In this document: positions 3,203-46,217 of the stretch, in pieces
Layout of the letters: each line of letters opens with the position of its first letter
How positions within the stretch are numbered: the stretch's first letter is position 1
Assembly: GCA_003154195.1 (NCBI GenBank)
Contig: PMCS01000018.1
Location: 44,773 to 108,772 of the forward strand
Origin: Candidatus Omnitrophota bacterium
GTDB taxonomy: Bacteria; Omnitrophota; Gorgyraeia; Duberdicusellales; 4484-171
Direction of reading: 5' to 3'
DNA length: 64,000 nt
Program-made: the position numbers and the translations under genes
The notes under the pieces: generated by a model
Database searches by the model: none
What the model was told of the DNA's origin: nothing
The model's input: only the letters and a program-made list of their open reading frames with translations

Positions 3203-3275
3203 TATTTTTCCCCTATTCTTGCTTAATTTTCTGACATTACTTTGTATATTTTGTTCATGCGGCGCATCGCTGTCT

Positions 3276-7081: not shown

Positions 7082-7248
7082 TCTATTTTACTCCGATATA
7101 CCGAAAAGTTAAATCATTTGTTTTTCATATTCCCCGGCATTCTTTTTCACATTCCTCTTTTGTTTCAAATGGAAGATTTGCTTCCAGGTTACCCTTTTTG
7201 TCTGGCCGCTTATTATATTAAGGCTATCGTCAGATAGACAGATGATAG

Positions 7249-16424: not shown

Positions 16425-16464
16425 GTATTATATTTATATTAGAAATACAATGTTGTCAATAGGA

Positions 16465-16590
16465 AAATTTAAGGGGATCGGGGGGTCGGGGAATTGGGGT
16501 TTGGGAATCAGGATATTGGGTGATTGGGTAGTGCCTGATTCCCAGTTTCCCAGTCCCCAAATCCCGATGTCCTGATTTCCTGCTACCCTT
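16465..16590. repeat. Imperfect palindrome built from gggaat/ttgggg units
   Basis: ggggatcggggggtcggggaattggggtttgggaatcaggatattggg ... cccagtttcccagtccccaaatcccgatgtcctgatttcc. Confidence 0.55.
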
Positions 16591-16621
16591 ATTTATGCGC
16601 TTGTTTTTTCTTCGCTGCCGG

Positions 16622-17185: not shown

Positions 17186-17342
17186 AAAAATTACCTCCTT
17201 ATTTTTTTGCTGGCAAAAAAATAATCACTCTTCCGTTTTTACCAACAAAATTATACCAACCAATTCAGTGAAATACTTTTTTCATAATGTATGATTATCT
17301 TTGGGTTAAATAGACCGTCTTCTTAATCTTTTTTTCGTCAAC

Positions 17343-19522: not shown

Positions 19523-19569
19523 TATGTATACTTTTTATATCGCTATAGCAATATAAAAAGTATACAAAC
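19523..19569. promoter_or_regulatory. Near-perfect 47-bp palindrome (candidate operator), copy 1
   Basis: tgtatactttttatatcgctatagcaatataaaaagtataca. The 30-bp core is repeated at 20661-20693. Confidence 0.5.
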
Positions 19570-19735: not shown

Positions 19736-20566
19736 TCACAATCTTATATTGCAGGTAGAAAACAGTTTTTGGGGGAGCCGGGCAATCAAGCGCTCTGCCT
19801 CTACGCGTTTTCGCCAGAGGCCGGAAAAGTCTTTGGGTAAAAACGGATCTTTTACCAATAATTGATTGAATTCATGAAACAATTCCCCGCCTTTGAGGTA
19901 GTACTCTTTAAAATTGACTTCGTTTGTTTCTATAATACGGGTGTAGTCATTACAGCTTTCTATTAGTTTGTCGTAACGGCTATCGAGATTTTGTAAATTC
20001 CATGCCCGGTCAGCAATCTCATCGATATTTTTTCCGGCAAAAAAATTACCTTCGTATATGCAAAGATATTTCAGTAATCCATATTCCCGGCATCGATGGT
20101 TGATTTGATGCGTATAGTCGTAGCAGGAAGCCCAGCAGCTGTCCTGAATCATCCCGAATCCCAGCGCCTGCAGGTTATGCCGTAACCACTCCCGGTGTTT
20201 TTTGCTTCGCTCGGGGATATCGTAAATAACGAGGCGCCATTTTTTATCCCATTTTTTTTGAAACTGTTGCGCTTTTATGTCTATGGCATCCGACAGAAAA
20301 CTGTATCGCCGGTCTTTATTAAAAGAAAACTGAAGTTTTTTTGCCTTAATTTTACGGATATAGCCTTTTCGGCATAACGATGCGGTTCTATTGTGTAATC
20401 TTTGCCGCGAATACAATTCGAATAATTGCGAACCGTGCAGGGCTTTCGGCCAAAAAGGCGGGGTGGAAAAAAAGAGGCAAAAATATAACATTTCCAAACT
20501 TTCTCTTAATAAAAAATCCGTCGCGTCGTTCATGCCGTATTTAACTCTGTTTAATGTTTTATTCAT
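19736..20566 (-). CDS. PaaX-like domain regulator (putative)
   Basis: WDKKWRLVIYDIPERSKKHREWLRHNLQALGFGMIQDSCWAS resembles the PaaX C-terminal domain WDGxWxLVxxxIPE..R..LR..L...GFG.L...VW. Confidence 0.45.
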   Translation of the reverse strand: MNKTLNRVKYGMNDATDFLLRESLEMLYFCLFFSTPPFWPKALHGSQLFELYSRQRLHNRTASLCRKGYIRKIKAKKLQFSFNKDRRYSFLSDAIDIKAQQFQKKWDKKWRLVIYDIPERSKKHREWLRHNLQALGFGMIQDSCWASCYDYTHQINHRCREYGLLKYLCIYEGNFFAGKNIDEIADRAWNLQNLDSRYDKLIESCNDYTRIIETNEVNFKEYYLKGGELFHEFNQLLVKDPFLPKDFSGLWRKRVEAERLIARLPQKLFSTCNIRL

Positions 20567-20654
20567 GTTTTTGTGCCAAGGTTATGTGTTGTTGCGATAG
20601 CGCTGGAAAATATGAAATATTTACGCCATAGGAACTGTTTTTTTAGGAGTATAT

Positions 20655-20698
20655 TAAAAATATTGCTATAGCAATATAAAAAGTATACAAAAATTAAG
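20655..20698. promoter_or_regulatory. Palindromic candidate operator, copy 2
   Basis: atattgctatagcaatataaaaagtatacaaaa, immediately upstream of the PaaX-like gene. Confidence 0.5.
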
Positions 20699-20718: not shown

Positions 20719-21324
20719 TTAAACGGCAATCTTGTATTTTTTTAATTCTTGCGTGGCTTGTTTTAAATTTCTGAACTGGACGCAATTGAGGGAAAGTTTC
20801 CGGGCGGGGGTAATCAGATCCGGACGGTCGTCGATGTAAACGATTTGGGAATATTTGCATCCTGCCATTTTTTTCAGTTCGGCGTATATCTTTTTTTCCG
20901 GCTTGACCGATTTTACCTTATAGGAAAGAACGAGTTTGTTAAAAATATCAAAAACTGCGGGATATTTTGCGTAAAGATAATTGAAATGCCATTCGTTGAT
21001 GTTGGAAATCATATATAGCGGGTAATGCTGTGAAAGTTTTGCGGCAAAGTCGATTACTTCCGGCATGGGGAAGAATATTTCGTTCCAGATGACGATGAAT
21101 TCGTCATGGCCGATGTCAACGCCGAATTTATTTTTAAATTTTTCATAAAATTTTCTGCCGGAAACTAAACCTTTTTCAAACTCAAGGGCGAAATTCTTAT
21201 AGAATAATTCTTCGATCACCTGAGCATGGGGCGCGTTAATCCTCCCTTTTAACCGGCGCAGGGCGATTGCGTAGTCAAAATCAAATAATACTCTGCCTAA
21301 ATCAAAGGCAATAGCTTCAATCAT
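20719..21324 (-). CDS. HAD-superfamily hydrolase
   Basis: Motif I AFDLGRVLF; HAD-like motif YIDDR. Confidence 0.75.
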   Translation of the reverse strand: MIEAIAFDLGRVLFDFDYAIALRRLKGRINAPHAQVIEELFYKNFALEFEKGLVSGRKFYEKFKNKFGVDIGHDEFIVIWNEIFFPMPEVIDFAAKLSQHYPLYMISNINEWHFNYLYAKYPAVFDIFNKLVLSYKVKSVKPEKKIYAELKKMAGCKYSQIVYIDDRPDLITPARKLSLNCVQFRNLKQATQELKKYKIAV

Positions 21325-21445
21325 ATAAAATAAAAACCAAAAGATTTACCACCAAGGCACTAAGCCACAAAAAAGCGACATTAGATGAGGAAAGAATTAT
21401 TTTTTAATCTTAGTGTCTTGGTGTCTTTCTGGCAAAGTTTTTGGT

Positions 21446-22942
21446 TCAGAAATAGAGATCTCGTTCACCTTTTTTAATCTTTTCGTAATACTCGATCAAC
21501 TTCGGATAAATTTTGGGCATTTTTTCTTTTATTTCCGCCAGTTCACGGTTGATGACTTTTTCTCCGATTTTTTTCGTCGCCGGCCCGGCGAAATCGTCGA
21601 GCCACTCTCGGAAGGTGAGGATCGCGTTGAGTTTGCAGAATTTTCCTTCCTGTCCGGTTTTTAAAAGGTCCATAATACATTCTCCTGTCCGGCCGCAGCG
21701 GTAGCCGGCGGTGCAAAAAGAAGTGATATAACCCATGCGGCAGAATTCCGCGATTAATTCCTCGAGGCTGCGGGTATCGCCCAGCAAAAATTGCTGGCGT
21801 TTGGTTTCTTGTTTACCGCTGCTTCCGCTATAGGCGCCGATGCCGATACGCGTCGAGGCGTCGGTCTGGGTAACGCCTAATTGTATCGAGCGGCGGCGCA
21901 TCTGGGGCGTTTCCCGCGCGGTGATGATCATACCGGTATAAGGGACGCTTAAGCGGATTACCGTGATGAGCTTTTCAAAATTACGGTCAGATACTTTATG
22001 GCGTGAATCTATCGTATACGGCGCGTTGGCCGCCGGCTCAAGGCGCGGGAAAGAAATCGTGTGCGGCCCGATGCCGAATTGTTTTTCCAGTTCCCGGGCG
22101 TGGGCGACCAGGCCCATTACTTCGAATTTCCAGTCGTATAAACCAAAAAGCGCGCCGATGCCTACGTCGTCGATTCCTGCTTCGAGAGCGCGGTGCATCG
22201 TGTAAAGCCGCCATCGGTAGTCTGATTTTAATGTTCCCCGGGGATGCAGAGTGGCATAGGTATCGTGATGGTAAGTTTCCTGAAACACCTGGTAGGTGCC
22301 CAGCCCCGCCCGTTTTAAAATTTTTAATTCGTTAACGGGCATCGGCGCGGCATTGACGTTTACCCGGCGTATCCGGCTAAAGCCGTGTTTTGTTTTGGCC
22401 TTAACCTTGTAGATTTCTTTTATCGTTTTGACCATGTATCTCACATCAGCCCGGGGGTGTTCGCCGTAAACGACAATCAGGCGTTTGTGGCCGATTTTTC
22501 CCGCGAGGACTTCGGTTTCTTTCCGCACTTCTTCGAGGCTTAATATTTTTCGCTTTGCTTCCTTGTTGCCTTGCCGGAATCCGCAATAAAGGCAGTCATT
22601 CAGGCAAAGATTGCTCAGGTAAAGCGGGGCGAAAGTGACAATTCGGTTATCATAAACTTTTTTCTTGATCTGTAGGGCGGTTTTTTCCATTTCCCGCAGG
22701 AGGCCGGTATCGGTGACGTTTAATAGCGCTGCCGTTTCGTCGAGGGTTAAGGTTTCAATCGCGAGGGATTTCGCTAAGATGTTTTTTATTTTTTCCGGGC
22801 CGGGATGATTATTTGCTTTAAGAGTTTTAATTATTTCATTATCATCGATAAAATCCTTGCCGTTAACCAGGTATTTTTCAAACTCGTTTTTTTTGATTCG
22901 ATTCTTCGCCCAGTTTTTCACGTCGATTGATTTTTTTATCAT
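21446..22942 (-). CDS. hydG: HydG-like radical SAM enzyme (ThiH/HydG tyrosine-lyase family)
   Basis: NRIVTFAPLYLSNLCLNDCLYCGF radical-SAM CX3CX2C site. C-terminal FCTAGYRCGRTGECIM...KFCKLNAILTFREWL resembles the HydG auxiliary-cluster region. Start set at MIKKS because the longer ORF N-terminus overlaps an intergenic hairpin. Confidence 0.75.
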   Translation of the reverse strand: MIKKSIDVKNWAKNRIKKNEFEKYLVNGKDFIDDNEIIKTLKANNHPGPEKIKNILAKSLAIETLTLDETAALLNVTDTGLLREMEKTALQIKKKVYDNRIVTFAPLYLSNLCLNDCLYCGFRQGNKEAKRKILSLEEVRKETEVLAGKIGHKRLIVVYGEHPRADVRYMVKTIKEIYKVKAKTKHGFSRIRRVNVNAAPMPVNELKILKRAGLGTYQVFQETYHHDTYATLHPRGTLKSDYRWRLYTMHRALEAGIDDVGIGALFGLYDWKFEVMGLVAHARELEKQFGIGPHTISFPRLEPAANAPYTIDSRHKVSDRNFEKLITVIRLSVPYTGMIITARETPQMRRRSIQLGVTQTDASTRIGIGAYSGSSGKQETKRQQFLLGDTRSLEELIAEFCRMGYITSFCTAGYRCGRTGECIMDLLKTGQEGKFCKLNAILTFREWLDDFAGPATKKIGEKVINRELAEIKEKMPKIYPKLIEYYEKIKKGERDLYF

Positions 22943-23091
22943 AAGTTCTCGGCTGTAGAATTTGAATAAAAACCTAAAACCTACCACCAAGACACCAAGG
23001 CATAAAGAAAAGGTGAATTTTCTTGGTGGCTTGGTGTCTTGGTGGTAAATCTTTTGGTTTTATTTTATCTGCGATCATCAGCATTTTCTAA

Positions 23092-24411
23092 TCAGTGATC
23101 CTCTGCGTTTTCTCTGATTCCCAAATCTGTTGGCGCCCTTCCCAGGGATTTTAGGAGCGAGACGGTCGTTTCTATTTGTGAAGATATGCTATCGCCGGAG
23201 TGCGCTTTATTGGGATAAATCTCGTAGTGCCGGCGGTACTTAAGCGGCGTAACATTAAGCATAACTGTATTGCCGCCGCTTAGCAACCCTTGCCGCATCC
23301 CGGAAGGATCAACCGTCTCCAGGGCCGTGGTTACGGCGATCTTCGCGTTGGCGGCGTCAACCAGCCGGGCTAAAGCCATGACTTTCAGGACATCCGTGGA
23401 TTGTCCCGGCGGGCATGCTGCCAGCGGCGTACCGGGATGTGGTAAGAACGGGCCGAAAGAATACATTTCCGGCCGCAGTTTTTTTGCCAGCTTGATATCG
23501 TCAAGAATATCGGCTACGGTTTGCCCGGGGATGCCGATTAAAGAACCGGTCATGATGATGTAGCCTAATTCGTAAGCCCGGCGGATATGAGCCAGGCGTG
23601 TGTCGAGTGCGCGCCCGGGATGAAGCTTGGCGTAAAGCTCAGGGTTGGAAGTCTCAAAGCGCATCAGCATTGCCCGGCTGCCGGCGTCATATAGTTCCTC
23701 CAATCCTTCCATGCCGAGTTCGCCGAAGCTTACGCAAATCAAAACTGCCGCCTTTTTCTTTATTCCTTTGATAATCCCGGATAATTGTTTTGCGGTGAAG
23801 CCGGGGTCTTCCCCGCTTTGTAAGACTAACGCCTGGAATCCGTATTCTTCGCAGGCTTCGACTGCCGCGGCGATGATTTCTTCCGGCGTCATGCGATAGC
23901 GGGTAATATTTTTATTGTGGCGGGATATGCCGCAATATTGGCAGGCGCTTGCGCAGTGATTGGATATTTCGATGATGCCGTGCACGCAGCAGGAATTTTT
24001 ATGGTACTTTTGGCGCAGGAAATTAGCTGTCTTGAAAAGTAATTCTATTTCCTGGGGGGCGGCGAGACGGAATAAATATTCAAGGTCGTCTTTTTTAAGG
24101 GTTAATCCTTCCATCGCCCGGTCTAAAATCGTGCCGGTTTTCTTATTAATATTTTTTTTATCGAGATCCAGCCGGGAAAGGCGCAGATCGGTGTCCTGAA
24201 GCTGGAAAAAAATCTCACGCCAGGCTTCGATGATCTCCCCCGCTTCTTTTTCCGGCACTTTTTTTATTATAAAACCGCCCTGGGCGCAGACATAATCGCC
24301 GATTTTCAAGTCGTAGAATTCGTTCCGGGCTTTTTTCTCTTCGCCGAAGTAGTCGACAACGACGGTTTTTTCGTTGATCGCTTTAATTTTTCCGGGTATC
24401 GCGTAGCACAT
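23092..24411 (-). CDS. HypC-like domain fused to HydE/BioB/PylB-family radical SAM enzyme
   Basis: N-terminal ~65 aa MCYAIPGKIKAINEKTVVVDYFGEE...GDYVCAQGGFII matches HypC/HupF (Met-Cys start). Followed by IEISNHCASACQYCGISRHNKNITRYRMTPEEI, a HydE-like CX3CX2C radical SAM core. Confidence 0.7.
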   Translation of the reverse strand: MCYAIPGKIKAINEKTVVVDYFGEEKKARNEFYDLKIGDYVCAQGGFIIKKVPEKEAGEIIEAWREIFFQLQDTDLRLSRLDLDKKNINKKTGTILDRAMEGLTLKKDDLEYLFRLAAPQEIELLFKTANFLRQKYHKNSCCVHGIIEISNHCASACQYCGISRHNKNITRYRMTPEEIIAAAVEACEEYGFQALVLQSGEDPGFTAKQLSGIIKGIKKKAAVLICVSFGELGMEGLEELYDAGSRAMLMRFETSNPELYAKLHPGRALDTRLAHIRRAYELGYIIMTGSLIGIPGQTVADILDDIKLAKKLRPEMYSFGPFLPHPGTPLAACPPGQSTDVLKVMALARLVDAANAKIAVTTALETVDPSGMRQGLLSGGNTVMLNVTPLKYRRHYEIYPNKAHSGDSISSQIETTVSLLKSLGRAPTDLGIRENAEDH

Positions 24412-25171
24412 TGTTTAAACCTCAAAAATAAAACCAAAAACTTACCACCAAGGCACTAAGATTTTTATCACCAAGACACCAAGAAGAAAAAACTTTCTAC
24501 TACCCGCTCGCTTTGTTCGCTGAAGGACACGAAGCTCACGAAAGAAAACAAAAAATAATTTTCAGCCACAGGTTAACACAGATGGACACAGATAAATATA
24601 AAAAAATGTTTCCCGCAAAGTTCGCGAAGAAAATAAAAATCTTTACCGCAGGCACAAAGGATACAAGAAAGCTTCAAGGTATTTCCCGCAAAGGCGCAAA
24701 GTGCGCAAAGAAAAACAAAACTAAAATTTCGCCTGATTGGGCGAGTTCACAGAGAAAAAATATATCTGCCCCGTTTTGCACTATTTTTATTAAACCAATT
24801 TTTTATTCTTTTTCTCTATTTTTAAAAAAATGTTTGTATCTTCCGATTCCACATATTCTGGAGATAGGCAACTTATTTTATCGCCTTTTCTTATTTGTGC
24901 AATTTGCGTGATTCGTTGTTAAAATTTTCCCCTAGTTTTCTTATTTTTTATTTATCTTTTCTTTTTCTTAATCTGCGTAATCTGTGGACAAAAAATTTTT
25001 GTTTTTATTTTTTCTTCGTGAGCTTCGTGCTCTTCAGCGAGTACTCAAGCGGGTGGTGAAAATTATTTTCCCAATTTTTTATCCTGTCCATCCGTGTTCA
25101 TCTGTGGCCAATAATTCTAGGTCTTATTTTTTTGTGTCTTTGTGCCTTCGTGGTAAATCTTTTGGTTCTGT
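24412..25171. repeat. Nested inverted-repeat element in a 760-bp non-coding gap
   Basis: Outer arms accaccaaggcactaag (24447-) and gtgccttcgtggtaaatcttttgg (25143-). Inner arms cccgctcgctttgttcgctgaaggacacgaagctcacgaa (24503-) and ttcgtgagcttcgtgctcttcagcgagtactcaagcgggtgg (25017-). Internal cacagat / atctgtggac motifs. Confidence 0.6.
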
Positions 25172-25414
25172 TTATTCTATATCAAACGAAACCACGTCCA
25201 CCCTCTCCGCCATGAAACAGGTAATCTCTAATTCCACCCCTTCCAGGATCGTGCCTTTAGCTAAAACGCTGAATGTTTCCCGAAACGAAGTTTCCTTTAT
25301 GCCGGTTAATTCACCGATTTTCAGGCGTATTTTGGTTACGCGCCGGCCGCCTTCCTGTTTCGCGTGTTCGACGATACCTTTGATTATCGGTTCGATGATG
25401 TGCGTTTCGTGCAT
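25172..25414 (-). CDS. hypA: HypA-like nickel metallochaperone N-terminal domain (no zinc-finger domain)
   Basis: Starts MHE (Ni-binding N-terminus). Aligns to HypA through ...RVTKIRLKIGELTGIKETSFRETFSVLAKGTILEGVELEI. Ends at 80 aa without CxxC...CxxC. Confidence 0.6.
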   Translation of the reverse strand: MHETHIIEPIIKGIVEHAKQEGGRRVTKIRLKIGELTGIKETSFRETFSVLAKGTILEGVELEITCFMAERVDVVSFDIE

Positions 25415-25504
25415 AGAATATAGAAAAAATATAGATATAGAAAACCATAAAGATTCACCACGAAGGTCACGAAGGTCACGAAGAAATTTTTTATAAATGC
25501 CTGA

Positions 25505-26011
25505 TTAGTGTTTTTGTGCCTTAGTGTCTTGGTGGTAAGTTTTTGGTTTTTCTTTAGTCGCTTCGATTATCAATCTTGAAACTTCACCGACGGCTTTTTT
25601 AACCGGCTCCGACAATTCTTCCCCGAAAGAAATATTTTCCGGCTGTATCGCCAACAGATATATATCGGCCTTGATCCGGCTTTGTAAATATTCGATAAAA
25701 AGTTTCGGCGAAATATTATGCGTGGTGAATCCCGAGTTGGCGATTTCCTCGTTTTTCAGGATCCGGTATTGCCCAGTCTCTAAACCCAAGTGCGCCGCGT
25801 CGATGAGTATTACCGTATCGGGTTTTTCTTTGATTATCTTGCCGCTGTGGTTTTCCGGGGCGCTTCCCGCGTCGATGCATACTGCGGCGGTATGATTTTT
25901 TAATCTTTCGATAATTGCCGGACCCAATCCATCGTCCGAGCGTAAAGTATTGCCTATCCCGACAAAAACAATTTTGCCCTTTAGTATATCCTGAAATATA
26001 TTTTTTGCCAT
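25505..26011 (-). CDS. [NiFe] hydrogenase maturation endopeptidase (HycI/HybD family)
   Basis: KIVFVGIGNTLRSDDGLGPAII ... DAG ... VILIDAAH, the typical protease family pattern. Confidence 0.8.
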   Translation of the reverse strand: MAKNIFQDILKGKIVFVGIGNTLRSDDGLGPAIIERLKNHTAAVCIDAGSAPENHSGKIIKEKPDTVILIDAAHLGLETGQYRILKNEEIANSGFTTHNISPKLFIEYLQSRIKADIYLLAIQPENISFGEELSEPVKKAVGEVSRLIIEATKEKPKTYHQDTKAQKH

Positions 26012-26135
26012 ATTAAAGTTTGACCAAAGACCTTTGATGTATTTTCAAAATTTTCTGAAAGAAAATTTTGGTCTTTAGTCTTTGGTCTGTTGTCTTTAGT
26101 CTAATCTTAGTGCTTGGTGGCAGATGTTTTGCTTT

Positions 26136-26747
26136 TTATTCTTTCGTCGTCAAGGTAGTTTCCCGGCGGCAGCGGCTGCAGAGGATTTTTACCCGGTCGG
26201 AACGGCCGAAGTCTTTTAACGCGGAAGTGATATTTTCGTCGATTATACCCAGGCCTTTCAGCTTTGACAGGTAAAGGGTGGGGTTAGAAAAGCTAAGTTC
26301 CCCGATTCTTTCGGCGATCCATTTCAGGTGGTCTTTGCAAGCAATGACCGCGCCGCAAATTTCGCATAACTGTAATTCTTTTTCAATCTCTTCCTGGGAA
26401 AGTTTGCGGTCAAAAAACGACAATTCCCAGTCGTTGGATAATTTAATCCCCTCTTTATCGGCAAGGCAGCCGGCTTCGCACTGGCCGCAAAAAATACAGG
26501 TGTCGGTATAGTGGATCATTTTACGCCGTGGCGATTTGTCATCGATGATATCGACTGATTTTATCGCGCGGACCGGGCAGACCTGTTCGCAGGCGGTGCA
26601 GCCGACACATTTAGCTTCGTTGAACTTAGGTTGCCCCCGGAAACTGGGATAAGGCCTATGCGTTTCGTAAGGGAATTTTGAAGTATACGGCCCTTTCCAC
26701 AACGCTTTTATCGCTTCGATTAATTCTCTCAGTTTAGGCAATCTCAT
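26136..26747 (-). CDS. 2x[4Fe-4S] ferredoxin subunit (NuoI/EchF/MbhN-like) with C-terminal extension
   Basis: CVGCTACEQVCP and CIFCGQCEAGC motifs. Confidence 0.75.
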   Translation of the reverse strand: MRLPKLRELIEAIKALWKGPYTSKFPYETHRPYPSFRGQPKFNEAKCVGCTACEQVCPVRAIKSVDIIDDKSPRRKMIHYTDTCIFCGQCEAGCLADKEGIKLSNDWELSFFDRKLSQEEIEKELQLCEICGAVIACKDHLKWIAERIGELSFSNPTLYLSKLKGLGIIDENITSALKDFGRSDRVKILCSRCRRETTLTTKE

Positions 26748-27046
26748 TTATCCCCGTTTTTTTTAAACGGCTCTATTCCGTTCTTGAGGGCCGCCCGGCT
26801 TATTGCGTGGGCCGCCGTCGGAGTCGTCAATAATATAAAAATCATGCAGATGATGATTTTCGCACCGGCGGCGTTAAGGCCGGTTACCAGAAAGGTCCCG
26901 AATAATATGCCGCATGTCCCGGCAGTGACGCATTTGGTCGCGGCTTGCATGCGGTTATAAACGTCGGGCAGCCTGATGATGCCGATACAGCCGATCACAT
27001 TAAATGCCAGCCCAATACTTATAAATATAAAACCTGCGATAACCAT
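26744..27046 (-). CDS. mrpG: Mrp antiporter-module subunit G (MnhG/MbhB-like)
   Basis: IIRLPDVYNRMQAATKCVTAGTCGILFG, the MnhG signature; 3 TM helices. Confidence 0.85.
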   Translation of the reverse strand: MVIAGFIFISIGLAFNVIGCIGIIRLPDVYNRMQAATKCVTAGTCGILFGTFLVTGLNAAGAKIIICMIFILLTTPTAAHAISRAALKNGIEPFKKNGDK

Positions 27047-27209
27047 AGTTTATATTCCAGTTTTTTTCTTGTGGTTTTGCCACAAGGTATTTTCTCGAAG
27101 GGAAGGTTTGCTCGCCAAAAGTTTCCAACTTTTGGCGGAGTCTCGCTCTTGACGGAGAAACCGCAGGTTTCCAAATATATAAATCAATTCCTGCTTCGCA
27201 GGAATTGAT
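27047..27209 (-). ncRNA. Structured intergenic region (three stem-loops) between mrpF and mrpG
   Basis: Hairpins cttgtggttttgccacaag; gccaaaagtttccaacttttggc; aaatcaattcctgcttcgcaggaattgattt. Confidence 0.3.
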
Positions 27210-27579
27210 TTATTCGTCGAAGCCCTTTCCTTCCAGGTATTTTGCCAGGGCCAGCGTGCTGATAAAGCTTTGCAGCGTCCAGGCAATCGCGATGTCAATA
27301 TACCATGACCGTCCGGTGGGGATGGTAAGGATCGCGCATAGCCCCACGAGCATAACGCCTAAAATATCCAGAACGACGATCCGGTCGGCTCCCGTCGGGC
27401 CTTTAATCAGGCGCCAGAGCAGCAGCAAACAGCAAAGCAAAAGGATAAACAGCGCCCGGCCGAAAAAAGCGACATGAGGCAAGTCGTGATAAAAAAGAAA
27501 CGGCAGAGGTTTTATAATGATCAACCCGATTGCCGACATTAAAGCTATTGCTCCGATAAACCACTTCAATCTTTTCATG
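27210..27579 (-). CDS. mrpF: Mrp antiporter-module subunit F
   Basis: RLIKGPTGADRIVVLDILG, the MnhF signature. Start set at MKRLKW, which is directly preceded by the recurrent start-proximal palindrome. Confidence 0.8.
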
Positions 27580-27645
27580 TTATTCCCCTTATTTTTTTGC
27601 TTAGCAAAAAAATAATTATATAAAAAAATTCCGGAGGGAATTTTT

Positions 27646-28143
27646 TTATTCAAAAATCTTTTTCAACAGCGGTTCGAACTTACCCGCAATCAGCCGTGTC
27701 GCGGTTTCGCTGTCTTCGGCCTTAACGTTAATCCAGTGAATATATAAAATACCTTTATCTTTATCGATATTGACGCACATCGTTCCCGGAATAAGGGTAA
27801 TTGAATTGGCTAAAAAAGTAAGCCCGATATCGCTGGTCAACGATGTTTTTATCTGAACGATCCCCGGGTTAATCGGCAGGTCAGGATGCAGAATACGCCA
27901 GGCAGCGTCAATATTGGCTTTGAGGCACTGCCAGGCAAATAATGGTAAGTAGCCGATTAAAAAATACCCCCAGCGAGAAGGGCGCGTGAACAATCGCGTT
28001 CCGTCGATAAATAAATCGCCGCAGAGTAAAGCCGTCAAGCCGGCCGCGGCAATGCCCGCTAAAAGATGCTGGCTGTCCGGCGGCCAGGATAAAAGCATCC
28101 AAATCGCTAAAGCGGCGATGAATAAAGCTAACCTGCGCCTCAC
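27646..28143 (-). CDS. mrpE: Mrp antiporter-module subunit E
   Basis: SITLIPGTMCVNID, MnhE-like. Confidence 0.8.
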   Translation of the reverse strand: MRRRLALFIAALAIWMLLSWPPDSQHLLAGIAAAGLTALLCGDLFIDGTRLFTRPSRWGYFLIGYLPLFAWQCLKANIDAAWRILHPDLPINPGIVQIKTSLTSDIGLTFLANSITLIPGTMCVNIDKDKGILYIHWINVKAEDSETATRLIAGKFEPLLKKIFE

Positions 28144-29645
28144 TTTATTCCTCCCAGAATCATTAAGCTATGGTTTATTCCTTCCTGCAGGACTCCGCCG
28201 GCTTTGCCCAGAAAAATTTCACGAGCGCCGGCAAAGCCCAGTATTCCGCCGATGACGCAGATGGCCGCCAGGATGGTCATGGACAAGCGCATCAGCCCCG
28301 GCACTTCTTTAATGTCGCCTAAATTTGTGTTGAATTCGCCACCAAAAGCATATTTCATGACCTTGGCGAATGAGGCTAAGGTCATGATGCTGACTAAAAC
28401 CGCCAGGAAGGCGTAACCGAACCGGCCGGCATCGACTAACGCTACGATAATGATTAGTTTGCTCCAGAAACCGTTGAGCGGCGGGATCCCGGCGATGGAC
28501 ATCGACGCGACCAAAGCCGTGGCGCCGGTTACGGGCATCTTTTGCGCCAAACCGCCCATCTTTCTTAAATCGCGTGTTTTCGCGGCATATTCGACTGCGC
28601 CGGAATTTAGAAAGAGCAGAGATTTAAATACCGAGTGGTTAAAAAGATGGAACAGGCCACCGAGGATGCCCAGGGGCGTCCCCAGTCCGATACCTAAAAA
28701 AACATAGCCGATCTGGCTTATCGAATGATAAGCTAACAGGCGTTTAAAATCCCACTGGCCGATCGCCGAGAATACTCCTACTGTCATCGATAACGCGCCT
28801 AAAAACATCAGGACAGCGGAAAACTTCGCGTCCATCCCCAGCACATTAAAAAATAAGCGGCATAATGTATATACGCCTAAGGATTTTATGAGTACGCCGG
28901 AAAGCATCGCGGAAATGGGCGCCGGGGCAGAAGGGTGTGCGTCGGGAAGCCAGCCGTGAAAAGGTACCAGCGCCGCCTTAAGTCCGAATCCCATTATAAA
29001 CATGACGGCTACCATCAACGAGATGTTGCTTTTGCCTTTTTGCAGCAGAGCGCAGGCGATATCCGCCATATTGAGCGTTGAGGTAAAACTGTATAATAGC
29101 CCGATGCCGAGAAGAATGAATAACGACCCGACTGCGCTCATCAGGGTATATTTAAAGGAAGCTTCCAATTCATGACGTCCTGTCCCGAAGGCGACTAACG
29201 CAAAACTTGCGATTGAAGCAATTTCTAAAAAGACGAACAGGTTGAAAATATCGCCGGTGATCACAACACCGTTCATTCCTGCGACCATCAATAAGAATAA
29301 AGCGAAAAATTTTCCTTTTGAGGTGTATCGTTCCATGTACGGCCCGCTGTAAATTGCGATTAAAAAGGCGATTAAATTTACCGTGACCAGCATAAACGCC
29401 GAAAATCCGTCAATCACCAAAGTTATGCCCAGCGGCGGTTTCCAGCTGCCCACGTTATAGATTAAAATCCGGTAAAGACCGACTGCTTTAACCGCGGCCA
29501 GGGACAATATCAGCAGCATTCCCGTAACAATCAGCCCCATCGCGTAAGGAAAATGTTTCATCCTTTTCTCTAAAAGAGAGATCAGGAAAGCTCCCCCTAA
29601 GGAGATGACGATAAAAAGCGGAGCGATATTCGCGGCAGCAATCAT
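28140..29645 (-). CDS. mrpD: Mrp subunit D / NuoN-M-like proton-translocating subunit
   Basis: 14-TM antiporter-like fold; conserved WLPDAH and GIPPLNGF motifs. Confidence 0.85.
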   Translation of the reverse strand: MIAAANIAPLFIVISLGGAFLISLLEKRMKHFPYAMGLIVTGMLLILSLAAVKAVGLYRILIYNVGSWKPPLGITLVIDGFSAFMLVTVNLIAFLIAIYSGPYMERYTSKGKFFALFLLMVAGMNGVVITGDIFNLFVFLEIASIASFALVAFGTGRHELEASFKYTLMSAVGSLFILLGIGLLYSFTSTLNMADIACALLQKGKSNISLMVAVMFIMGFGLKAALVPFHGWLPDAHPSAPAPISAMLSGVLIKSLGVYTLCRLFFNVLGMDAKFSAVLMFLGALSMTVGVFSAIGQWDFKRLLAYHSISQIGYVFLGIGLGTPLGILGGLFHLFNHSVFKSLLFLNSGAVEYAAKTRDLRKMGGLAQKMPVTGATALVASMSIAGIPPLNGFWSKLIIIVALVDAGRFGYAFLAVLVSIMTLASFAKVMKYAFGGEFNTNLGDIKEVPGLMRLSMTILAAICVIGGILGFAGAREIFLGKAGGVLQEGINHSLMILGGIK

Positions 29646-29977
29646 CCTTGCAGCTCCTTGATTTTCGTAACGTCGAATGTTTTATATTTCTCGTAGATTC
29701 GCAAAGCCAGGGCGATAAGTATCGAGGTAAACGCCAGGCCGATGATAATTGAGGTTAAGGCCAGGGCCTGGGGAAGCATATCGACCATGTTTTCGATACG
29801 CGCGTTCGGCGAAAGAATCGCGGAGCGCCCTTCCCGGCGGTAGCCCAGGATTATGAAAAATAGGTTGACCGCGTATTGCGCGATGATCGTCCCGATGATT
29901 ATTTTGATGATATTGCGCTTGCGCACGATACAATAGATGCCCAGACAGAAAAGAATAAGGCACAATAGATAAATCAT
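29642..29977 (-). CDS. mrpC: Mrp subunit C (NuoK-like)
   Basis: IIKIIIGTIIAQYAVNLFFI...LPQALALTSIIIGLAFTSILIALAL. Confidence 0.85.
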   Translation of the reverse strand: MIYLLCLILFCLGIYCIVRKRNIIKIIIGTIIAQYAVNLFFIILGYRREGRSAILSPNARIENMVDMLPQALALTSIIIGLAFTSILIALALRIYEKYKTFDVTKIKELQG

Positions 29978-30429
29978 TACCGGTCATCCTCCCGATTTAT
30001 ACGTAAAAGTATCAGGGCGATAAAAATAGCAAAAAGCCCTGCTCCTACCTTGACGCCGATGGCGATATTATATAAAGGCATAATCCCCGCGCTGAACAAT
30101 CGGAATGGTTCGCCTTTACCGATGAAATTCAGTAAAAAATAACCGCCGGTAAAGCCCAGGCCGGCAAGGGCTAAAAACATCAACGCGCCTAGATTTTCAA
30201 TGAATGATGCCGCCGCCCGGGGTAATTTTTTAAAGGCTGATTCTTTACCGTAAGCGAGCATCAACTGGATAAACGCAAGGGCGATAATCACGCCGCCCAC
30301 GAATCCTCCTCCCGGAGAAACGTGGCCGTGGGAAAGGATGTATATGCCGTATAAGAAAATCGGGCCGGCGGTAAGCCGGGTTACGGTTTTTACGATTAAA
30401 GACATCCCTTTATCTTTTTCGTTATTCAT
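29977..30429 (-). CDS. mrpB: Mrp subunit B
   Basis: GHVSPGGGFVGGVI, the MnhB signature. Confidence 0.85.
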   Translation of the reverse strand: MNNEKDKGMSLIVKTVTRLTAGPIFLYGIYILSHGHVSPGGGFVGGVIIALAFIQLMLAYGKESAFKKLPRAAASFIENLGALMFLALAGLGFTGGYFLLNFIGKGEPFRLFSAGIMPLYNIAIGVKVGAGLFAIFIALILLRINREDDR

Positions 30430-30964
30430 TGTCCAGCCCTGTTTCTTCGTTTTTTCTTCCCTTTCGCCGTAAAATAGTTAATACGCCGATTACTGCCGTA
30501 AAAAGAACTGCTGCTTCGCCCAGAGTGTCGTAAGCCCTGAAATCAAGGATTACCGCGGATACCAGGTTGGTTGCCCCGGTATCTTTTAATCCTTCTTTTA
30601 AATATGCCGATGAGGTTTTTATCGTCGGGTAGCCGAATTGCGGCAGCTCTTTGAAACATTTAACCGCGGTGAAAATAAAAACAAAGATAAAACAAACGGT
30701 AATGACGGTATTTACCAACCACCGGCCGCTGGTGGAAAAAGGCAAGTCTTCTTTCATCGTGGCCCGGATTAATATTATCAGGCTTAATATTTCCACAATC
30801 AACTGGGTGATTGCCACATCGGGAGCTTTAAGGACAAGGAAGGTTAACGAAAGCCCCAGCCCGGTTGCGCCCAGCGCGATTACCGAGGAAAGTAGATCTT
30901 TCGTTTCGACGGCGATCGCCGCGGCGACGATGATGAAAATCAATAAGATGTATAAATCCAGCAT
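30422..30964 (-). CDS. MrpA C-terminal-domain / MnhB-like subunit (DUF4040-type, MbhD/E-like)
   Basis: AITQLIVEILSLI ... NLVSAVILDFRAYDTLGEAAVLFTAVIG. Confidence 0.65.
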   Translation of the reverse strand: MLDLYILLIFIIVAAAIAVETKDLLSSVIALGATGLGLSLTFLVLKAPDVAITQLIVEILSLIILIRATMKEDLPFSTSGRWLVNTVITVCFIFVFIFTAVKCFKELPQFGYPTIKTSSAYLKEGLKDTGATNLVSAVILDFRAYDTLGEAAVLFTAVIGVLTILRRKGRKNEETGLDNE

Positions 30965-31093
30965 AAGCGCCCCTTTATTCTCCTTCGCCGAATACCCTGT
31001 GGCTTGCCACAGGGATGAAGGCTTCTGGTATTTGGCTTCGGAGAAATGAAGATAGATACCCCGCGGGCTTGCCGCGGGGAGTACATTTGTGCT

Positions 31094-32749
31094 TCATTTA
31101 ATGCTCAGCGCGTAAAACAATATAATCATCCCTAGAAGGCACCAGGCCAAATAATTGGAGATTATACCGTTGTGCATACGGTTTAGTATTCCATTAAGCC
31201 AAAAAACAATTTTTTTGCCTGATTCGTACAAGTCAAAGTTTTTCTCTTCCGCTAACCGGTAAATATTTTTAAAAGGCGGCGCATCGCTTATTGTGTTATA
31301 GAATTCGGTCCCGGATACGCGCATTTGAGGATGGTCTTCCAGGATCTCGCCGCCGATAAAGTTCCGGGTTTCCCTCGGTTTTTTGTTTACGCCCAGCCAA
31401 TAAAATAATAAGCCGATAATAATCGCCGACAATAATAAAATCGTCGCAAGCGGAGAATTCCAAACCCCCGGAAAAACTAATCCGGGACCGACGCTGGGGA
31501 TGATATAATTTTTTAACGGCAGTTGGTAGGCGAAGACGCCGAATAATACGCATAGCGCCGCTAAGACGATTCCGACCGCAAGCATCGGCAATGGGGCTTC
31601 TCCCTGCTTTATGCTCGCGTTGGTTTTATCCGCAGGTTGGCCTAAAAACACCGCGTTAATCAATTTCATGAAGCTGGCTAAAGTCAGGGCGCTGCCGAAC
31701 ATTGCCGCCGCGAGGTATATCATCCACAGGGTATTTCCGGTTTTGGCGGAATCCACGATTGCCTGGTAAATCATCCATTTGGAAGCGAAGCCGTTAAAAG
31801 GCGGAATGCCCGAGATGGCCAGCGAAGCGATTAAAAAAGTTATAAAAGTAACCGGCATAAATTTAGCGTAACCGCCGAGTTTATCCAGATCGGTCGTGCC
31901 GGCTTTTTGTTCCACGTTGCCGGCGGAAAAAAAGAGGCATGATTTATAGATGGCATGGTTGAGCATGTGAAACAAACCGGCGGCGATTCCCAAAGCGGTT
32001 CCCGTACCGATACCTAAGACCATGTAACCGACCTGGCTTACGGCATGGTATCCCAGCAGGCGTTTCAGGTCATGCTGGACCAGCGCCATCATTACTGCGG
32101 CTACGATAGTGATGCTCCCCATAACCATTAGCAGGGTGTTCATCGCCGGGTTCATTATAAATAGATTTAACGACAGGCGGCAGAGCAGATAAATACCCAG
32201 AAGTTTGTCTAAAGATGCCGGCAAATACGCCGTTACCGGAGCCGGCGCGTCCTGGGCGGTATCGGGGATCCAGGTATGGAACGGCATTAATCCGGCTTTG
32301 GCGAAAGCGCCGCAGGCTAAGCACAGGTAAGCGGCGATTGCCGTATTCGAATCTAACGCTATCTTAATCTTAGAGATTTCCAGGGTACCGGTGATTTTCC
32401 AGACCATTGCCAGGCCCAATAACATTATCGCGTCGGAACCGCCGATGATAATCAAAGCTTTCTTGGCAGTGGCCGGAGTATTTTTATTTTCTCCAAAACT
32501 GATAAGAAGATATAAAAGCAGGCCTAAAAATCCCCAGAACACTATTAACACCAGAAGATTGCTTGAAAATATAACACCTAAAGATGCGATAAGGGTCAAT
32601 AAAATATAAAGGTAGTAGGGAAAAATATTTTTTCTTCCCCGCATAAAATCAAAAGAGTAAACCGCAGTCAATAGGGTAAACAAAACCGCGAATAGCCCTA
32701 TAAAAATTGAAAGATTGTCCAGTAATAATAATTGCCAGAAATTGTCCAT
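31094..32749 (-). CDS. mrpA: MrpA/NuoL-like antiporter subunit (MbhH-like)
   Basis: Multi-TM; WIPDTAQDAPAPVTAY and GIPPFNGFASKW motifs. Confidence 0.85.
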   Translation of the reverse strand: MDNFWQLLLLDNLSIFIGLFAVLFTLLTAVYSFDFMRGRKNIFPYYLYILLTLIASLGVIFSSNLLVLIVFWGFLGLLLYLLISFGENKNTPATAKKALIIIGGSDAIMLLGLAMVWKITGTLEISKIKIALDSNTAIAAYLCLACGAFAKAGLMPFHTWIPDTAQDAPAPVTAYLPASLDKLLGIYLLCRLSLNLFIMNPAMNTLLMVMGSITIVAAVMMALVQHDLKRLLGYHAVSQVGYMVLGIGTGTALGIAAGLFHMLNHAIYKSCLFFSAGNVEQKAGTTDLDKLGGYAKFMPVTFITFLIASLAISGIPPFNGFASKWMIYQAIVDSAKTGNTLWMIYLAAAMFGSALTLASFMKLINAVFLGQPADKTNASIKQGEAPLPMLAVGIVLAALCVLFGVFAYQLPLKNYIIPSVGPGLVFPGVWNSPLATILLLSAIIIGLLFYWLGVNKKPRETRNFIGGEILEDHPQMRVSGTEFYNTISDAPPFKNIYRLAEEKNFDLYESGKKIVFWLNGILNRMHNGIISNYLAWCLLGMIILFYALSIK

Positions 32750-32751
32750 AA

Positions 32752-33939
32752 TTACTTTTGGCCGTATTTTTTTCTGATTCTCTCGGTTTTTTCCTGAGAA
32801 AGCTTGACCAGATTTTGGCCGTTATAAAGATGTTTTCCTTTTATGTCGCGCACTGCCAGTCGTTCCGTGCAACAATAGCAAGGGTCAATCGCGGCGAGGA
32901 TTATCGTCGCGTCCGAAATGGTTTCGCCTACCACGGTCGCTTTATAGGTGGGGAGATTCATAAAAGTGGGCGCCCTGACTTTATGCCGGACCGGCCGGTT
33001 GGTGCCGTCGCTGCGAACGTAGTGAAAACATTCGCCCCGGGGAGCTTCGATGCGGCCGATGCCTTCACCCGACGGTATATTTTTTATGCCGGCGTCGATT
33101 TCCCCCTGAGGAAGCGCCGTCAAACAGGCTTTTAATATTTTTATCGATTCAAATGCTTCCAGCACGCGGAGCAAAAGTTTGTCGAATACATCGCCGTTGG
33201 GAGTAACGATTATTTGCCAATCTACTTTATCATACGCGGCATAGGGTGAATTTTTTCTTACGTCTTTAGCGACGCCGCTTGCCCTTGCGACTGGGCCCAG
33301 CGCCGAATAATCTATCGCTTCTTCTTTGGTCAGTATTCCTACGCCTTTGGTGCGCGCGTGCAATACCGGGTCGTCAGCTATGGCTTTTTTAAGCATTTCC
33401 AGCGTAGGTATGATTGAATCGATTTTTTTAAGGACAACCGGTATATCCTCGGATTTAATATCGCGGCGTACTCCTCCGGGCTTGAACATCGCGTAGTTAT
33501 TGCGGTTTCCCGAAAGGATTTCCATGACGTCTAAAATTTCTTCTCTTAATTTCCAGGCCCACATGTAGACAGTGTTGTATCCTAAAAAGTGCCCGGCCAG
33601 CCCCAGCCATAAGAGATGGGAATGTATTCGTTCGCCTTCGGCGATGATCGTGCGGATATACTGCGCGCGTAAGGGTATTTCTATTCCGGAGATATCTTCG
33701 ACGGCTTCGACCAGCGCGAAGGGGTGGCTGGTCGAACATATGCCGCAAATACGTTCGACTAAAAATGTAGATTGGTCGAAAGTCTTGGATTCCGAAAGTT
33801 TTTCGATGCCGCGATGGTTGTAGCCTATCCGGACGTCGATATCCACGACGCGCTCGCCTTCCACGGTAAGCGTGAAGAATTCCGGTTCTTCCTGTAAGGG
33901 ATGATACGGCCCGATTGGTACTATAGTTTTTTTTGACAT
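32752..33939 (-). CDS. Group 4 [NiFe] hydrogenase large subunit (EchE/MbhL, NuoD-like)
   Basis: N-terminal RICGICSTSH (RxCGxCxxxH) and C-terminal DPCYCCTER (DPCxxCxxR) Ni-Fe ligand motifs, followed by a ~35-aa C-terminal extension. Confidence 0.85.
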   Translation of the reverse strand: MSKKTIVPIGPYHPLQEEPEFFTLTVEGERVVDIDVRIGYNHRGIEKLSESKTFDQSTFLVERICGICSTSHPFALVEAVEDISGIEIPLRAQYIRTIIAEGERIHSHLLWLGLAGHFLGYNTVYMWAWKLREEILDVMEILSGNRNNYAMFKPGGVRRDIKSEDIPVVLKKIDSIIPTLEMLKKAIADDPVLHARTKGVGILTKEEAIDYSALGPVARASGVAKDVRKNSPYAAYDKVDWQIIVTPNGDVFDKLLLRVLEAFESIKILKACLTALPQGEIDAGIKNIPSGEGIGRIEAPRGECFHYVRSDGTNRPVRHKVRAPTFMNLPTYKATVVGETISDATIILAAIDPCYCCTERLAVRDIKGKHLYNGQNLVKLSQEKTERIRKKYGQK

Positions 33940-33944
33940 ATGTT

Positions 33945-34040
33945 CTAGATGATGATCGCTGATAAAAATAAAGGCAATTGATAATTATTTTTTATCTGTG
34001 GTCATCTGCTTCCTTTGACCTGTGATCATCTGCGCTTACA
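33945..34040. repeat. Intra-operon direct repeats tgtgRtcatctgc x2
   Basis: atctgtggtcatctgcttcctttgacctgtgatcatctgcgc between the large-subunit and NuoC-like genes. Confidence 0.4.
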
Positions 34041-34044
34041 GAAT

Positions 34045-34518
34045 TTATACTCCCCTGTCCCTTATCGCGTCTTTATCCCATTCCTTATAATCGTAGCGTA
34101 AGGGGTAAGAACCATCCGGCCAGTTTTCCGGTAAAAGCAGTTTTCGCAAATCCGGATGCCCGGTGAAATCGATGCCGAGCAATTCGTGCATTTCCCGTTC
34201 AATCCAATTTGCCGCTTCGAAAGTTTTAGCCAGGGAATCGATTCGTGGTGTATCCCGGGAAAGTATTACCCGCAGCGAAACGGTCAGGTTTATATCGTCA
34301 AAAGTGAAATGGTAAAGTATTTCGATATGCCGGCGGCAGTCTATCCCGGAAGCGATATTGAATCTTGCCCCCAGGTCTTTAAACACATAGGTAGAGATTT
34401 TGACTAACGCCTCCGGTTTTATCCCGACATATAACCGCCGGGGCGATTTATCGAAAAAATCAATAATATCGTCTTTAAACCGTTGTTTTAAATTGTCGAG
34501 AATTTCTTGTTTTTGCAT
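34045..34518 (-). CDS. NuoC-like 30-kDa subunit (EchD/MbhK)
   Basis: HFTFDDINLTVSLRV...ANWIEREMHELLGIDFTGHPD. Confidence 0.8.
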   Translation of the reverse strand: MQKQEILDNLKQRFKDDIIDFFDKSPRRLYVGIKPEALVKISTYVFKDLGARFNIASGIDCRRHIEILYHFTFDDINLTVSLRVILSRDTPRIDSLAKTFEAANWIEREMHELLGIDFTGHPDLRKLLLPENWPDGSYPLRYDYKEWDKDAIRDRGV

Positions 34519-34544
34519 AAATAGTACGAATAAATTTTTAAATC

Positions 34545-34660
34545 ATTATAGAATATTGTAGGGGCGGATCCGTGTATCCGCCCGTTACGATTTATTTTAT
34601 TATCATTGAATATTTTATTATTTTGTAACGGGCCGACACATAGGTCGGCCCCTACGATAT
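34545..34660. repeat. gtaggggc...gcccctac palindrome, copy 1
   Basis: tgtaggggcggatccgtgtatccgcccgttacgat...gtaacgggccgacacataggtcggcccctacgat. Confidence 0.6.
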
Positions 34661-35095: not shown

Positions 35096-35099
35096 ATAT

Positions 35100-35215
35100 G
35101 TACCAAAATTTATATTGTAGGGGCGGATTCGTGTATCCGCCCGCTAGGATCTATTTTATGATTATCGGATATTTTGTAACGGGTCGATACATGGATCGAC
35201 CCCTACAATCAAAAT
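35100..35215. repeat. gtaggggc...gcccctac palindrome, copy 2
   Basis: attgtaggggcggattcgtgtatccgcccgctaggat...gtaacgggtcgatacatggatcgacccctacaat. Confidence 0.6.
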
Positions 35216-35216
35216 A

Positions 35217-36830: not shown

Positions 36831-36928
36831 AATTTTTTGCTCCGCAAAAAATTATCCGCATCCCCTTAGGGATGAGGAGAGACATTAAAATTGTTATTGA
36901 ACTTTTTTTCAGTTTTCGTTTTCTGCAA

Positions 36929-36984
36929 ATCCGCTCGTAGGCGGATTTATTTCTAAAATGATTATGCGGTTTACCGCATAATCA
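36929..36984 (-). terminator. Tandem stem-loops downstream of 36987-37874
   Basis: aaatccgctcgtaggcggattt and aaaatgattatgcggtttaccgcataatcatttt. Confidence 0.5.
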
Positions 36985-36986
36985 TT

Positions 36987-43720: not shown

Positions 43721-43734
43721 ATTTATATTTTACC

Positions 43735-46071: not shown

Positions 46072-46074
46072 TAG

Positions 46075-46215
46075 TTCTTCATAAATAAGGCTATCGGGAT
46101 ATCGGGGTATCAGGATTTGGATATTAGGGGACTGGGATATTAGGTATTTCCTAATACCCTAATCGCCTAATTCCCAAATCCTAATTTCCCGATTTACCAA
46201 TCCCCTTCTTTTAGA
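46075..46215. repeat. Imperfect palindrome built from gggatattagg/cctaat units
   Basis: ggatattaggggactgggatattaggtatttcctaataccctaatcgcctaattcccaaatcc. Confidence 0.55.
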
Positions 46216-46217
46216 GC

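Follow-up and report, generated by a model that had tools for sequence, protein, structure and literature searches.

Hairpin repeats of the hydrogenase-maturation locus

The window examined here is a 64-kb stretch of contig PMCS01000018.1 from an Omnitrophota population of Stordalen Mire, and the elements in question are hairpin-forming repeats, with arms built around the motif CACCAAG, that lie between the genes of a hydrogenase-maturation cluster. Together with 16 kb of flanking contig, about 80 kb of the genome were covered. Contigs from ENA, JGI and NCBI encode proteins identical to those of the window, whose closest named relatives are Omnitrophota metagenome-assembled genomes (MAGs). All 61 genes of the open reading frame (ORF) model of the window are on the minus strand. 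The window carries no tRNA genes, and Rfam 15 at gathering score gives 0 matches across its 64 kb.

The maturation genes, at 20.7-26.7 kb, are located downstream of an Mrp/Mbh-type [NiFe] hydrogenase. In transcript order, all on the minus strand, they encode a ferredoxin (26136-26747), the hydrogenase protease HycI (25505-26011), an 80-aa HypA fragment (25172-25414), a HypC-HydE fusion (23092-24411), HydG (21446-22942) and, last, a HAD hydrolase (20719-21324).

The sequence ACCACCAAGRCACYAAG, allowing up to 3 mismatches, has 13 matches in the window against 0.15 expected, and none of 100 shuffled sequences reaches 13. These matches all lie within 21348-25536 or 56296-56474 and 12 of them are intergenic; the other one (25520-25536) falls on the last codons of the HycI reading frame. 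An outer element, AAAACCAAAAGATT, also has 13 matches (2.2 expected), and those with 0-1 mismatch are all at arms. The 13 aligned arms give the consensus AAAACCAAAAGATTT-ACCAC-CAAG-R-CAC-Y-AAG-R-CACAAAG. Thus an arm of about 35-45 nt is composed of the A/T-rich leader AAAACCAAAAGATTT, ACCAC and 2-4 tandem octamers CAC-N-AAG-R. Tandem Repeats Finder reports a period of 8 for CTTGGTGG, CACCAAGA and TTTGTGCC and of 9 for CACGAAGGT, with a range of 7-10 across arms. Single arms are found, as are doublets of 100-120 nt, in which two inverted arms make an imperfect hairpin. The doublet stems are 20-45 bp long with A/U-rich bases, the loops measure 6-45 nt, and a broken U-run follows the 3' arm, which terminates in UUUUGGUUUUUAUUUU.

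A sequence-only reading of the window had reported such inverted repeats at a series of sites and had suggested that every maturation gene is individually bracketed by them. Hairpins were indeed found at all of these sites, and they separate HydG, HypC-HydE, HypA and HycI from one another. These four genes are bracketed on both sides and the HAD hydrolase gene on its upstream side only. Bracketing ceases at the overlapping ferredoxin and Mrp/Mbh genes. The fold energies, computed for RNA in the sense orientation with 200 shuffles per hairpin, bear out the stability of the structures: for each of five hairpins, none of the 200 shuffles folds as well as the real sequence.

The gap between the HAD hydrolase gene and hydG contains a doublet at 21328-21449, with arms at 21332-21372 (plus) and 21395-21446 (minus), one of which has an additional 8-nt unit that creates a bulge (fold of 21325-21450, -31.3 kcal/mol, z -4.2). 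The best-paired copy, with three CTTGGTGG units of period 8, occupies 22964-23066 between hydG and the HypC-HydE gene (fold of 22955-23075, -49.4 kcal/mol, z -10.2). The doublet of the HypA/HycI gap, at 25438-25554, is of mixed CACGAAG/CACCAAG type and includes 2.8 copies of CACGAAGGT (fold of 25430-25560, -26.2 kcal/mol, z -3.5). This hairpin is real, yet it is not wholly intergenic, since its 3' arm (25505-25552) supplies hycI with its final 14 codons. The stretch 26012-26137, earlier taken for one hairpin, resolves into a single CACCAAG arm (26100-26137, minus strand) directly past the ferredoxin stop codon and a separate hairpin of 7-nt units (GACCAAA / TTTAGTC, five times) at 26022-26087, just upstream of HycI (z -4.2); the fold of 26012-26140 has -24.2 kcal/mol and z -4.2.

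The gap between the HypC-HydE and HypA genes is far more complex. Its 760 nt (24412-25171) fold as a whole at -227 kcal/mol (z -10.7). The alignment, the fold and the tandem-repeat calls all describe a nested composite at 24426-25172. The arms 24447-24480 and 25143-25168, previously considered a simple pair, are real, but they are the outermost arms of this composite, which also holds CACGAAG/CGCTGAAG, CACAGAT and CGCAAAG arms in a roughly mirrored arrangement. The left half contains A arms (24426-24484), a B arm (24494-24545), a C arm (24560-24593) and CGCAAAG arms (24609-24710). The right half, in reverse complement, contains C' (24970-24994), B' (25014-25064), C'' (25083-25112) and A' (25131-25170). 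No credible gene is present inside this gap, where gene callers place spurious ORFs.

The composite is based on a module of about 190 nt, A (CACCAAG) - B (CACCACCCGCTCGC...CACGAAG) - C (GTCCACAGATT...), which aligns in five places. One further copy, with a CACAGAT hairpin, is at 43721-44143. As an inverted pair the module is seen twice. One pair is that of the 760-nt gap. The other, some 2-4 kb to the left of the window (L216, 12417-13993), encloses two unannotated ORFs of 286 and 200 aa in inverted composite A-B-C arms, a transposon-like layout; the two ORFs have no Pfam or PDB match and no transposase signature.

The maturation genes have features of their own. HydG is bona fide (TIGR03955, 457 bits), while the HypC-HydE fusion scores 254.3 bits with the HydE model (cut-off 254.6). 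Both are radical-SAM maturases of the [FeFe]-hydrogenase type (21446-24411), and they sit together with HycI and the truncated 80-aa HypA (25172-26011) and with a group-4 Mbh/Mrp-type [NiFe] hydrogenase (26744-34518). The fusion is retained at 50-66% identity in MAGs of Omnitrophota, Caldatribacterium, Brevinematales and Spirochaetota.

Distribution in the contig and in related loci

The CACCAAG family is not restricted to the maturation cluster. The gap between dprA and topA (56.2-56.5 kb) contains a single arm (56281-56335, plus strand) and a doublet (56383-56493) that is not tied to hydrogenase genes (fold of 56375-56500, -42.3 kcal/mol, z -6.5). A degenerate arm, AAAACCTAAAATTTACCACTAAATAC, lies at 1.1 kb (1130-1187, minus strand) and is 81% identical to 56467-56508, flank included. 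The family occurs in 6 more gaps of the 16-kb flanking contig, adjoining response-regulator, HTH, CsgG and solute-binding genes. In all, about 13 of the 54 gaps of the window and its flanks carry it.

Nor is this the only family of its kind. Strong hairpins (z < -3) are present in 22 of the 41 window gaps of at least 60 nt versus 3 of 123 coding controls, and an energy of at most -0.30 kcal/mol per nt is found for 59% of the gaps of 80-300 nt and for 6% of the coding controls. Only a few nt separate the hairpins from the upstream stop codon, and little of the gap is left over. At least 8 unit types can be distinguished in the window, with a period that is mostly 8 (range 7-10). Apart from CACCAAG, they include GGTTA/GGTAA, GGGAWTN, CACAGAT, CAGATA, CGCAAAG, CTGAYGC, CGTTAA and the classical GTAG-tagged repetitive extragenic palindrome (REP).

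Neighbouring gaps share the same family more often than expected (8 versus 3.4, P = 0.01), and five consecutive CACCAAG gaps are improbable by chance (P = 0.006). In addition, nearby copies are the most alike: those at 48307 and 50285 are 88% identical over 134 nt, as compared to 65% for a distant copy, and those at 34553 and 35112 are 85-88% identical. This resemblance between neighbours, along with the clustering of families, suggests copying over short range.

These data bear on the proposal that the hairpins are a device of the maturation cluster, be it operators of a hydrogenase regulator, insulators or attC-like scars of cassette assembly, through which each maturation gene is controlled singly. 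HydG, HypC-HydE, HypA and HycI are each flanked by CACCAAG arms, and five consecutive junctions with one family exceed random placement. However, the family is also found beside dprA, topA and other genes unrelated to hydrogenases, and neighbour clustering is likewise displayed by other repeat families. The five-gap run fits local repeat spread better than a function of the cluster. As to cassette scars, the flanked genes are housekeeping genes and GTTRRRY core sites are missing. The sole tyrosine recombinase (52937-53893), 27 kb away, is XerC (343.3 bits, cut-off 335.15) and not an integron integrase (TIGR02249, 130.6 bits versus 265).

A comparison with relatives also argues against this proposal. 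The CACCAAG motif is essentially absent from about 160 loci with an orthologous HypC-HydE, at 47-66% protein identity; genome and metagenome collections yielded no relative above 66%. Where the neighbouring genes could be mapped, the operon is compact. The gap from the ferredoxin (Fer4) gene to hycI has a median of 22 nt in relatives versus 124 nt in the window, and that from hypA to the HypC-HydE gene a median of 12 nt versus 760 nt. HycI and HypA genes are adjacent or overlapping in 77 of 78 relatives but 90 nt apart in the window. Moreover, the window HycI bears a 14-residue C-terminal tail, KEKPKTYHQDTKAQKH, which is the translated repeat arm and which four relatives lack. Structure is no commoner in the gaps of the relatives than in coding DNA (about 25% versus 14-25%), indicating that saturation with hairpins is a trait of the lineage of the window. 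The comparison thus shows, from sequence, that the copies of the maturation cluster were inserted secondarily into a formerly compact operon. The generic spread that the sequence-only reading itself had named as fatal to its proposal is largely what is seen, save that local clustering remains. It appears very unlikely that a cluster-specific device is at work, and the notion of a control system dedicated to hydrogenase maturation is mostly refuted.

Short repeats could confuse assemblers, and N runs do occur nearby in the scaffolds, so that an assembly or chimera artefact of repeat-rich metagenomic DNA might be considered. Its probability is negligible. Indeed, six independent assemblies (ENA WOOD18 scaffolds of different samples, a MEGAHIT contig, a JGI contig and the NCBI MAG) agree over 22.3-25.6 kb save for single-nucleotide differences, and the ENA, JGI and NCBI versions of the hairpin region are 99.8-100% identical.

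Several other features of the contig and of related loci may be recorded here. In relatives (e.g. L009, 11313-11972), a gene for a Rex-type redox repressor lies between the HypC-HydE and HydG genes; in the window this junction has the hairpin doublet only, and the Rex gene is 15 kb away (39041-39709). A 43-nt palindrome, GTATACTTTTTATAT(C/T)GCTATAGCAATATAAAAAGTATAC, at 19526-19568 and 20649-20691 flanks a gene for a PaaX-like regulator (19736-20566) and is a candidate operator pair. A small palindrome, TTTTTTGC(T)CCGCAAAAAA, occurs four times (17203-17237, 36833-36867, 53816-53850 and 57601-57635), with at least two copies directly 5' of a start codon. TPR/ankyrin-repeat paralogues at 3052-3573, 5246-5545 and 6931-7088 share stretches of 158-300 nt that are 81-90% identical, which looks like recent local gene duplication.

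Origin, spread and possible effects

We think it probable that the CACCAAG hairpins belong to a dispersed family of non-coding repeats, organized as modular octamer arrays, that invaded operon junctions in this lineage, and that they are not a regulator of hydrogenase maturation. As the comparison with relatives shows, the ancestral maturation operon was compact and translationally coupled, and the repeats entered its junctions later. One insertion took the place of the stop codon of hycI, adding 14 residues to the protein. To judge from the patterns of similarity, spread may have been mostly short-range and arms may evolve as 8-nt units are added or lost; between the related loci L183 and L192 the difference is one such unit. 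Once in place, a stable stem-loop between the cistrons of long co-directional transcripts would uncouple neighbouring genes. It could slow 3'-exonucleases, or it could pause RNA polymerase or terminate transcription in part. That polycistronic transcripts are affected is likely by analogy with REPs, the BIMEs (bacterial interspersed mosaic elements) that they form and the STRR (short tandemly repeated repetitive) hairpins of cyanobacteria.

Several observations weigh against this scheme. No gene for a transposase or RAYT (REP-associated tyrosine transposase) is found in the approximately 80 kb of window and flanks, which are only a portion of the genome, and the sequences on either side of each of the five doublets have no direct repeat of at least 3 nt in common, such as a target-site duplication would leave. 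No presence/absence polymorphism of the hairpins was found among the available strains, the six other assemblies of this population being 99.8-100% identical and differing by N runs and single nucleotides only. The family labels on which the clustering test depends were assigned by eye. The partner arms of a hairpin are no more alike than random arms (0.644 versus 0.621, P = 0.25). A role at the RNA level finds no positive support, as the sense strand folds more stably than the antisense strand in only 5 of 21 hairpin gaps. Given the lack of arm co-variation and of a sense-strand advantage, pairing seems to follow from the match of each arm to the family consensus. There seems to be no sign of selection on a sense-strand RNA helix.

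The last points are equally relevant to a second hypothesis, namely that the hairpins are selected RNA elements which, throughout the genome, serve at gene boundaries as partial terminators or 3'-end stabilizers that set the relative expression of cistrons, instead of being tolerated selfish repeats. The placement of the hairpins is what such elements would display. They start a few nt past the upstream stop codon, nearly fill each gap, are very stable (-24 to -55 kcal/mol) and have a 3' arm that ends in UUUUGGUUUUUAUUUU; with 61 of 61 genes co-directional, every gap is inside a potential polycistronic transcript. STRR hairpins of cyanobacterial hup/hox clusters have been proposed to act likewise (PMC2670836). 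On the other hand, neither the folding nor the arm comparison just described favours the sense transcript, and arms occur singly and in either orientation. Several gaps already have a canonical terminator beside the long hairpin (e.g. 61402-61627 and 36831-36986), and a consensus terminator scan misses the hairpins themselves. Several start codons follow after only 6-12 nt, too little for a new promoter in the event of efficient termination, and the relatives manage without hairpins. We regard this hypothesis as rather unlikely.

In a third hypothesis, a sequence-specific protein would recognize CAC-N-AAG octamers in DNA or RNA, the arms would provide it with arrays of binding sites, and the hairpin would be a by-product of their opposite orientation. 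Nucleoid or replication proteins and S1/Csp-type RNA binders are candidates. Here, the absence of co-variation between partner arms is a point in favour, as is the fact that CAC and AAG stay constant and the N and R positions change. Different families also share a design that consists of a T-run, NCCAC and C[AG]C-N-[AG]A[GT] units, and the TAACTGA heptamer arrays have been read in this way (PMC4679880). Furthermore, one arm includes AAACCTACCACC, the DnaA-box oligonucleotide of Thermotoga maritima (PMC10316083), and C arms include TT[AG]TCCACA. AAACCTACCACC lies within the CACCAAG arm at 22969-22990 of the window, CACAGAT arms open with TT[AG]TCCACA, and one copy (L216, 12128-12330) is a perfect TTATCCACA. 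The likeness to DnaA boxes may be coincidence, being exact in one arm only.

Further support for such recognition comes from environmental viral DNA. A scan of IMG/VR with TTWACCACNAAGRCACNAAG retrieved 45 stretches, compared to an estimated chance expectation of roughly 6. The arm, TTWACCAC-N-AAG-R-CAC-N-AAG, appears in unrelated viral contigs of 36-72% GC, in 42 distinct versions. Of these, 22 extend to a third CAC-N-AAG unit, which was no part of the search pattern; for 13, an inverted partner lies no more than 250 nt away, and some adjoin other arm types or GTAG REPs. However, no orientation bias relative to genes is evident among the viral-contig arms (22 sense versus 17 antisense near starts), no candidate protein was identified, the period of 8 does not match the helical repeat of DNA, and the 8 or more unrelated unit types would require as many binders. 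All in all, binding-site arrays seem an unlikely explanation.

The viral stretches have no protein family in common, the biggest cluster spanning 4 loci. The B arm, TTCACCACCCGCTCGCNTTGCTCGCT, had no exact match in viral contigs, and a BLAST search of cultured phage and plasmid collections with the best doublet found none either. In one viral contig of 72% GC (L214) there are two copies, each about 170 nt long, that have these arms and an internal core in common and show no target-site duplication. In another IMG/VR contig, of 47% GC (L209, 1969-2215), an arm plus 20 nt of flank is repeated 3-4 times in tandem with a period of 44 nt, which implies that arms can also amplify as larger tandem blocks.

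A broader and more speculative proposal is that CACCAAG arms form an undescribed superfamily of modular octamer-array elements that extends across phyla and is read by a conserved machinery, either a mobilizing enzyme of a new kind or a host factor that binds DNA or RNA. It is prompted by the shared design (T-run, NCCAC and 2-4 C[AG]C-N-[AG]A[GT] units), the 36-72% GC range, the fixed A-B-C order and the conservation of sequence without arm co-variation. This pattern points to recognition and not to selection for the hairpin alone. We put this forward tentatively, and as doubtful.

If the hairpins of this locus are repeats that invaded its junctions, as we favour, they should not be taken as regulation specific to hydrogenase maturation. 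They matter for annotation, because they generate spurious ORFs, such as a 109-aa gene called inside the 760-nt gap, and change the ends of real genes, as in the HycI tail. They also disrupt translational coupling, the operon being compact in every relative examined. With about 60% of its gaps filled by hairpins and at least 8 octamer-array families, this genome offers a natural system for the function and spread of REP- and STRR-like repeats. What deserves further study is that one arm type recurs in environmental and viral DNA unrelated to this genome.

Relation to known repeat classes

A search of the literature for hairpins or repeats of Omnitrophota, and for the literal repeat strings, found no description of this family. 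Its closest functional analogue is the REP/BIME/REPIN class (PMC3116915, PMC3733652). Like these, the CACCAAG repeats are short, extragenic (12 of 13 arms are intergenic) and multi-copy, often occur as inverted doublets that form a long hairpin (z -3.5 to -10.2 for the five doublets), lie between co-transcribed genes and coexist with other families in one genome. Unlike REPs, none of the 13 aligned arms has a GTAG or CGTC tag, which the GTAGGGGC family of the window does carry. Single CACCAAG arms are built of tandem octamers and are not palindromic, their DNA folding at 0 to -2.6 kcal/mol (z +0.6 to -2.4) as opposed to -9 for GTAG arms. The genes of the window and its 16-kb flanks include no RAYT (Y1 transposase) gene. 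The GTAG-tagged units themselves (GTAGGGGCGGAT...ATCCGCCC, -9 kcal/mol each) are present as inverted doublets at 34519-34660, 35096-35216 and 58110-58271. These look REPIN-like, which suggests that a RAYT gene is located somewhere in the genome.

STRR families with 7-nt units include CCCCAGT and others. The cyanobacterial STRR hairpins, e.g. those of hupS-hupL and upstream of hoxW, are the closest architectural analogue, since they too are intergenic arrays of short tandem units that pair into hairpins inside hydrogenase gene clusters (PMC2670836). They have no known function, but roles in transcript stability or translational coupling have been proposed (PMC2670836). In contrast to these 7-nt cyanobacterial repeats, those described here belong to Omnitrophota, have a period of mostly 8 (7-10), comprise many unit types and possess a conserved leader. 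The GGGAWTN hairpin arms of the window (16425-16621, 46072-46217 and 62900-63033) have at least 4 G3 tracts on one strand and thus G-quadruplex potential, for which the heptamer G4 repeats of Xanthomonas and Nostoc offer a comparison (PMC4692102).

The TAACTGA heptamers of Beggiatoaceae, Cyanobacteria and Bacteroidetes are likewise short tandem units in gaps with a patchy distribution across phyla (PMC4679880). They are often found near start codons that lack a canonical ribosome-binding site, have no evident mechanism of transfer and are nearly always direct, with 1 indirect set in 170 (PMC4679880). By comparison, inverted pairs dominate here, and the unit and period differ.

Intrinsic terminators are another form of hairpin that was compared. 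A consensus scan was empty at the CACCAAG doublets, although it is uninformative for long stems. The doublets have long A/U-rich stems and loops of up to 45 nt, as against the short G+C-rich stem, loop of 3-8 nt and direct U-tract of an intrinsic terminator.

Bacterial miniature inverted-repeat transposable elements (MITEs), such as Correia, RUP, BOX and similar elements, are 100-200 nt long, with terminal inverted arms and a short core, reach high copy numbers in intergenic regions and can alter gene ends. The doublets of 100-120 nt resemble them in having terminal inverted repeats around a short non-coding core, within the 50-500 nt range. They differ in their internally repetitive arms and in the lack of target-site duplications (five doublets and the two L214 copies); no parent insertion sequence with matching ends came to light in the 80 kb covered. 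Integron attC sites, too, are imperfect palindromes after each gene of a co-directional array, but the window has no integron integrase and no R''/R' core sites, and the genes that are flanked, which include topA, dprA, lpxK and those for hydrogenase subunits, have housekeeping functions and are scattered over 64 kb. The CACCAAG element, which falls outside the strict definitions of REP, MITE and attC, is best described as a lineage-specific dispersed repeat of REP-, STRR- and MITE-like character.

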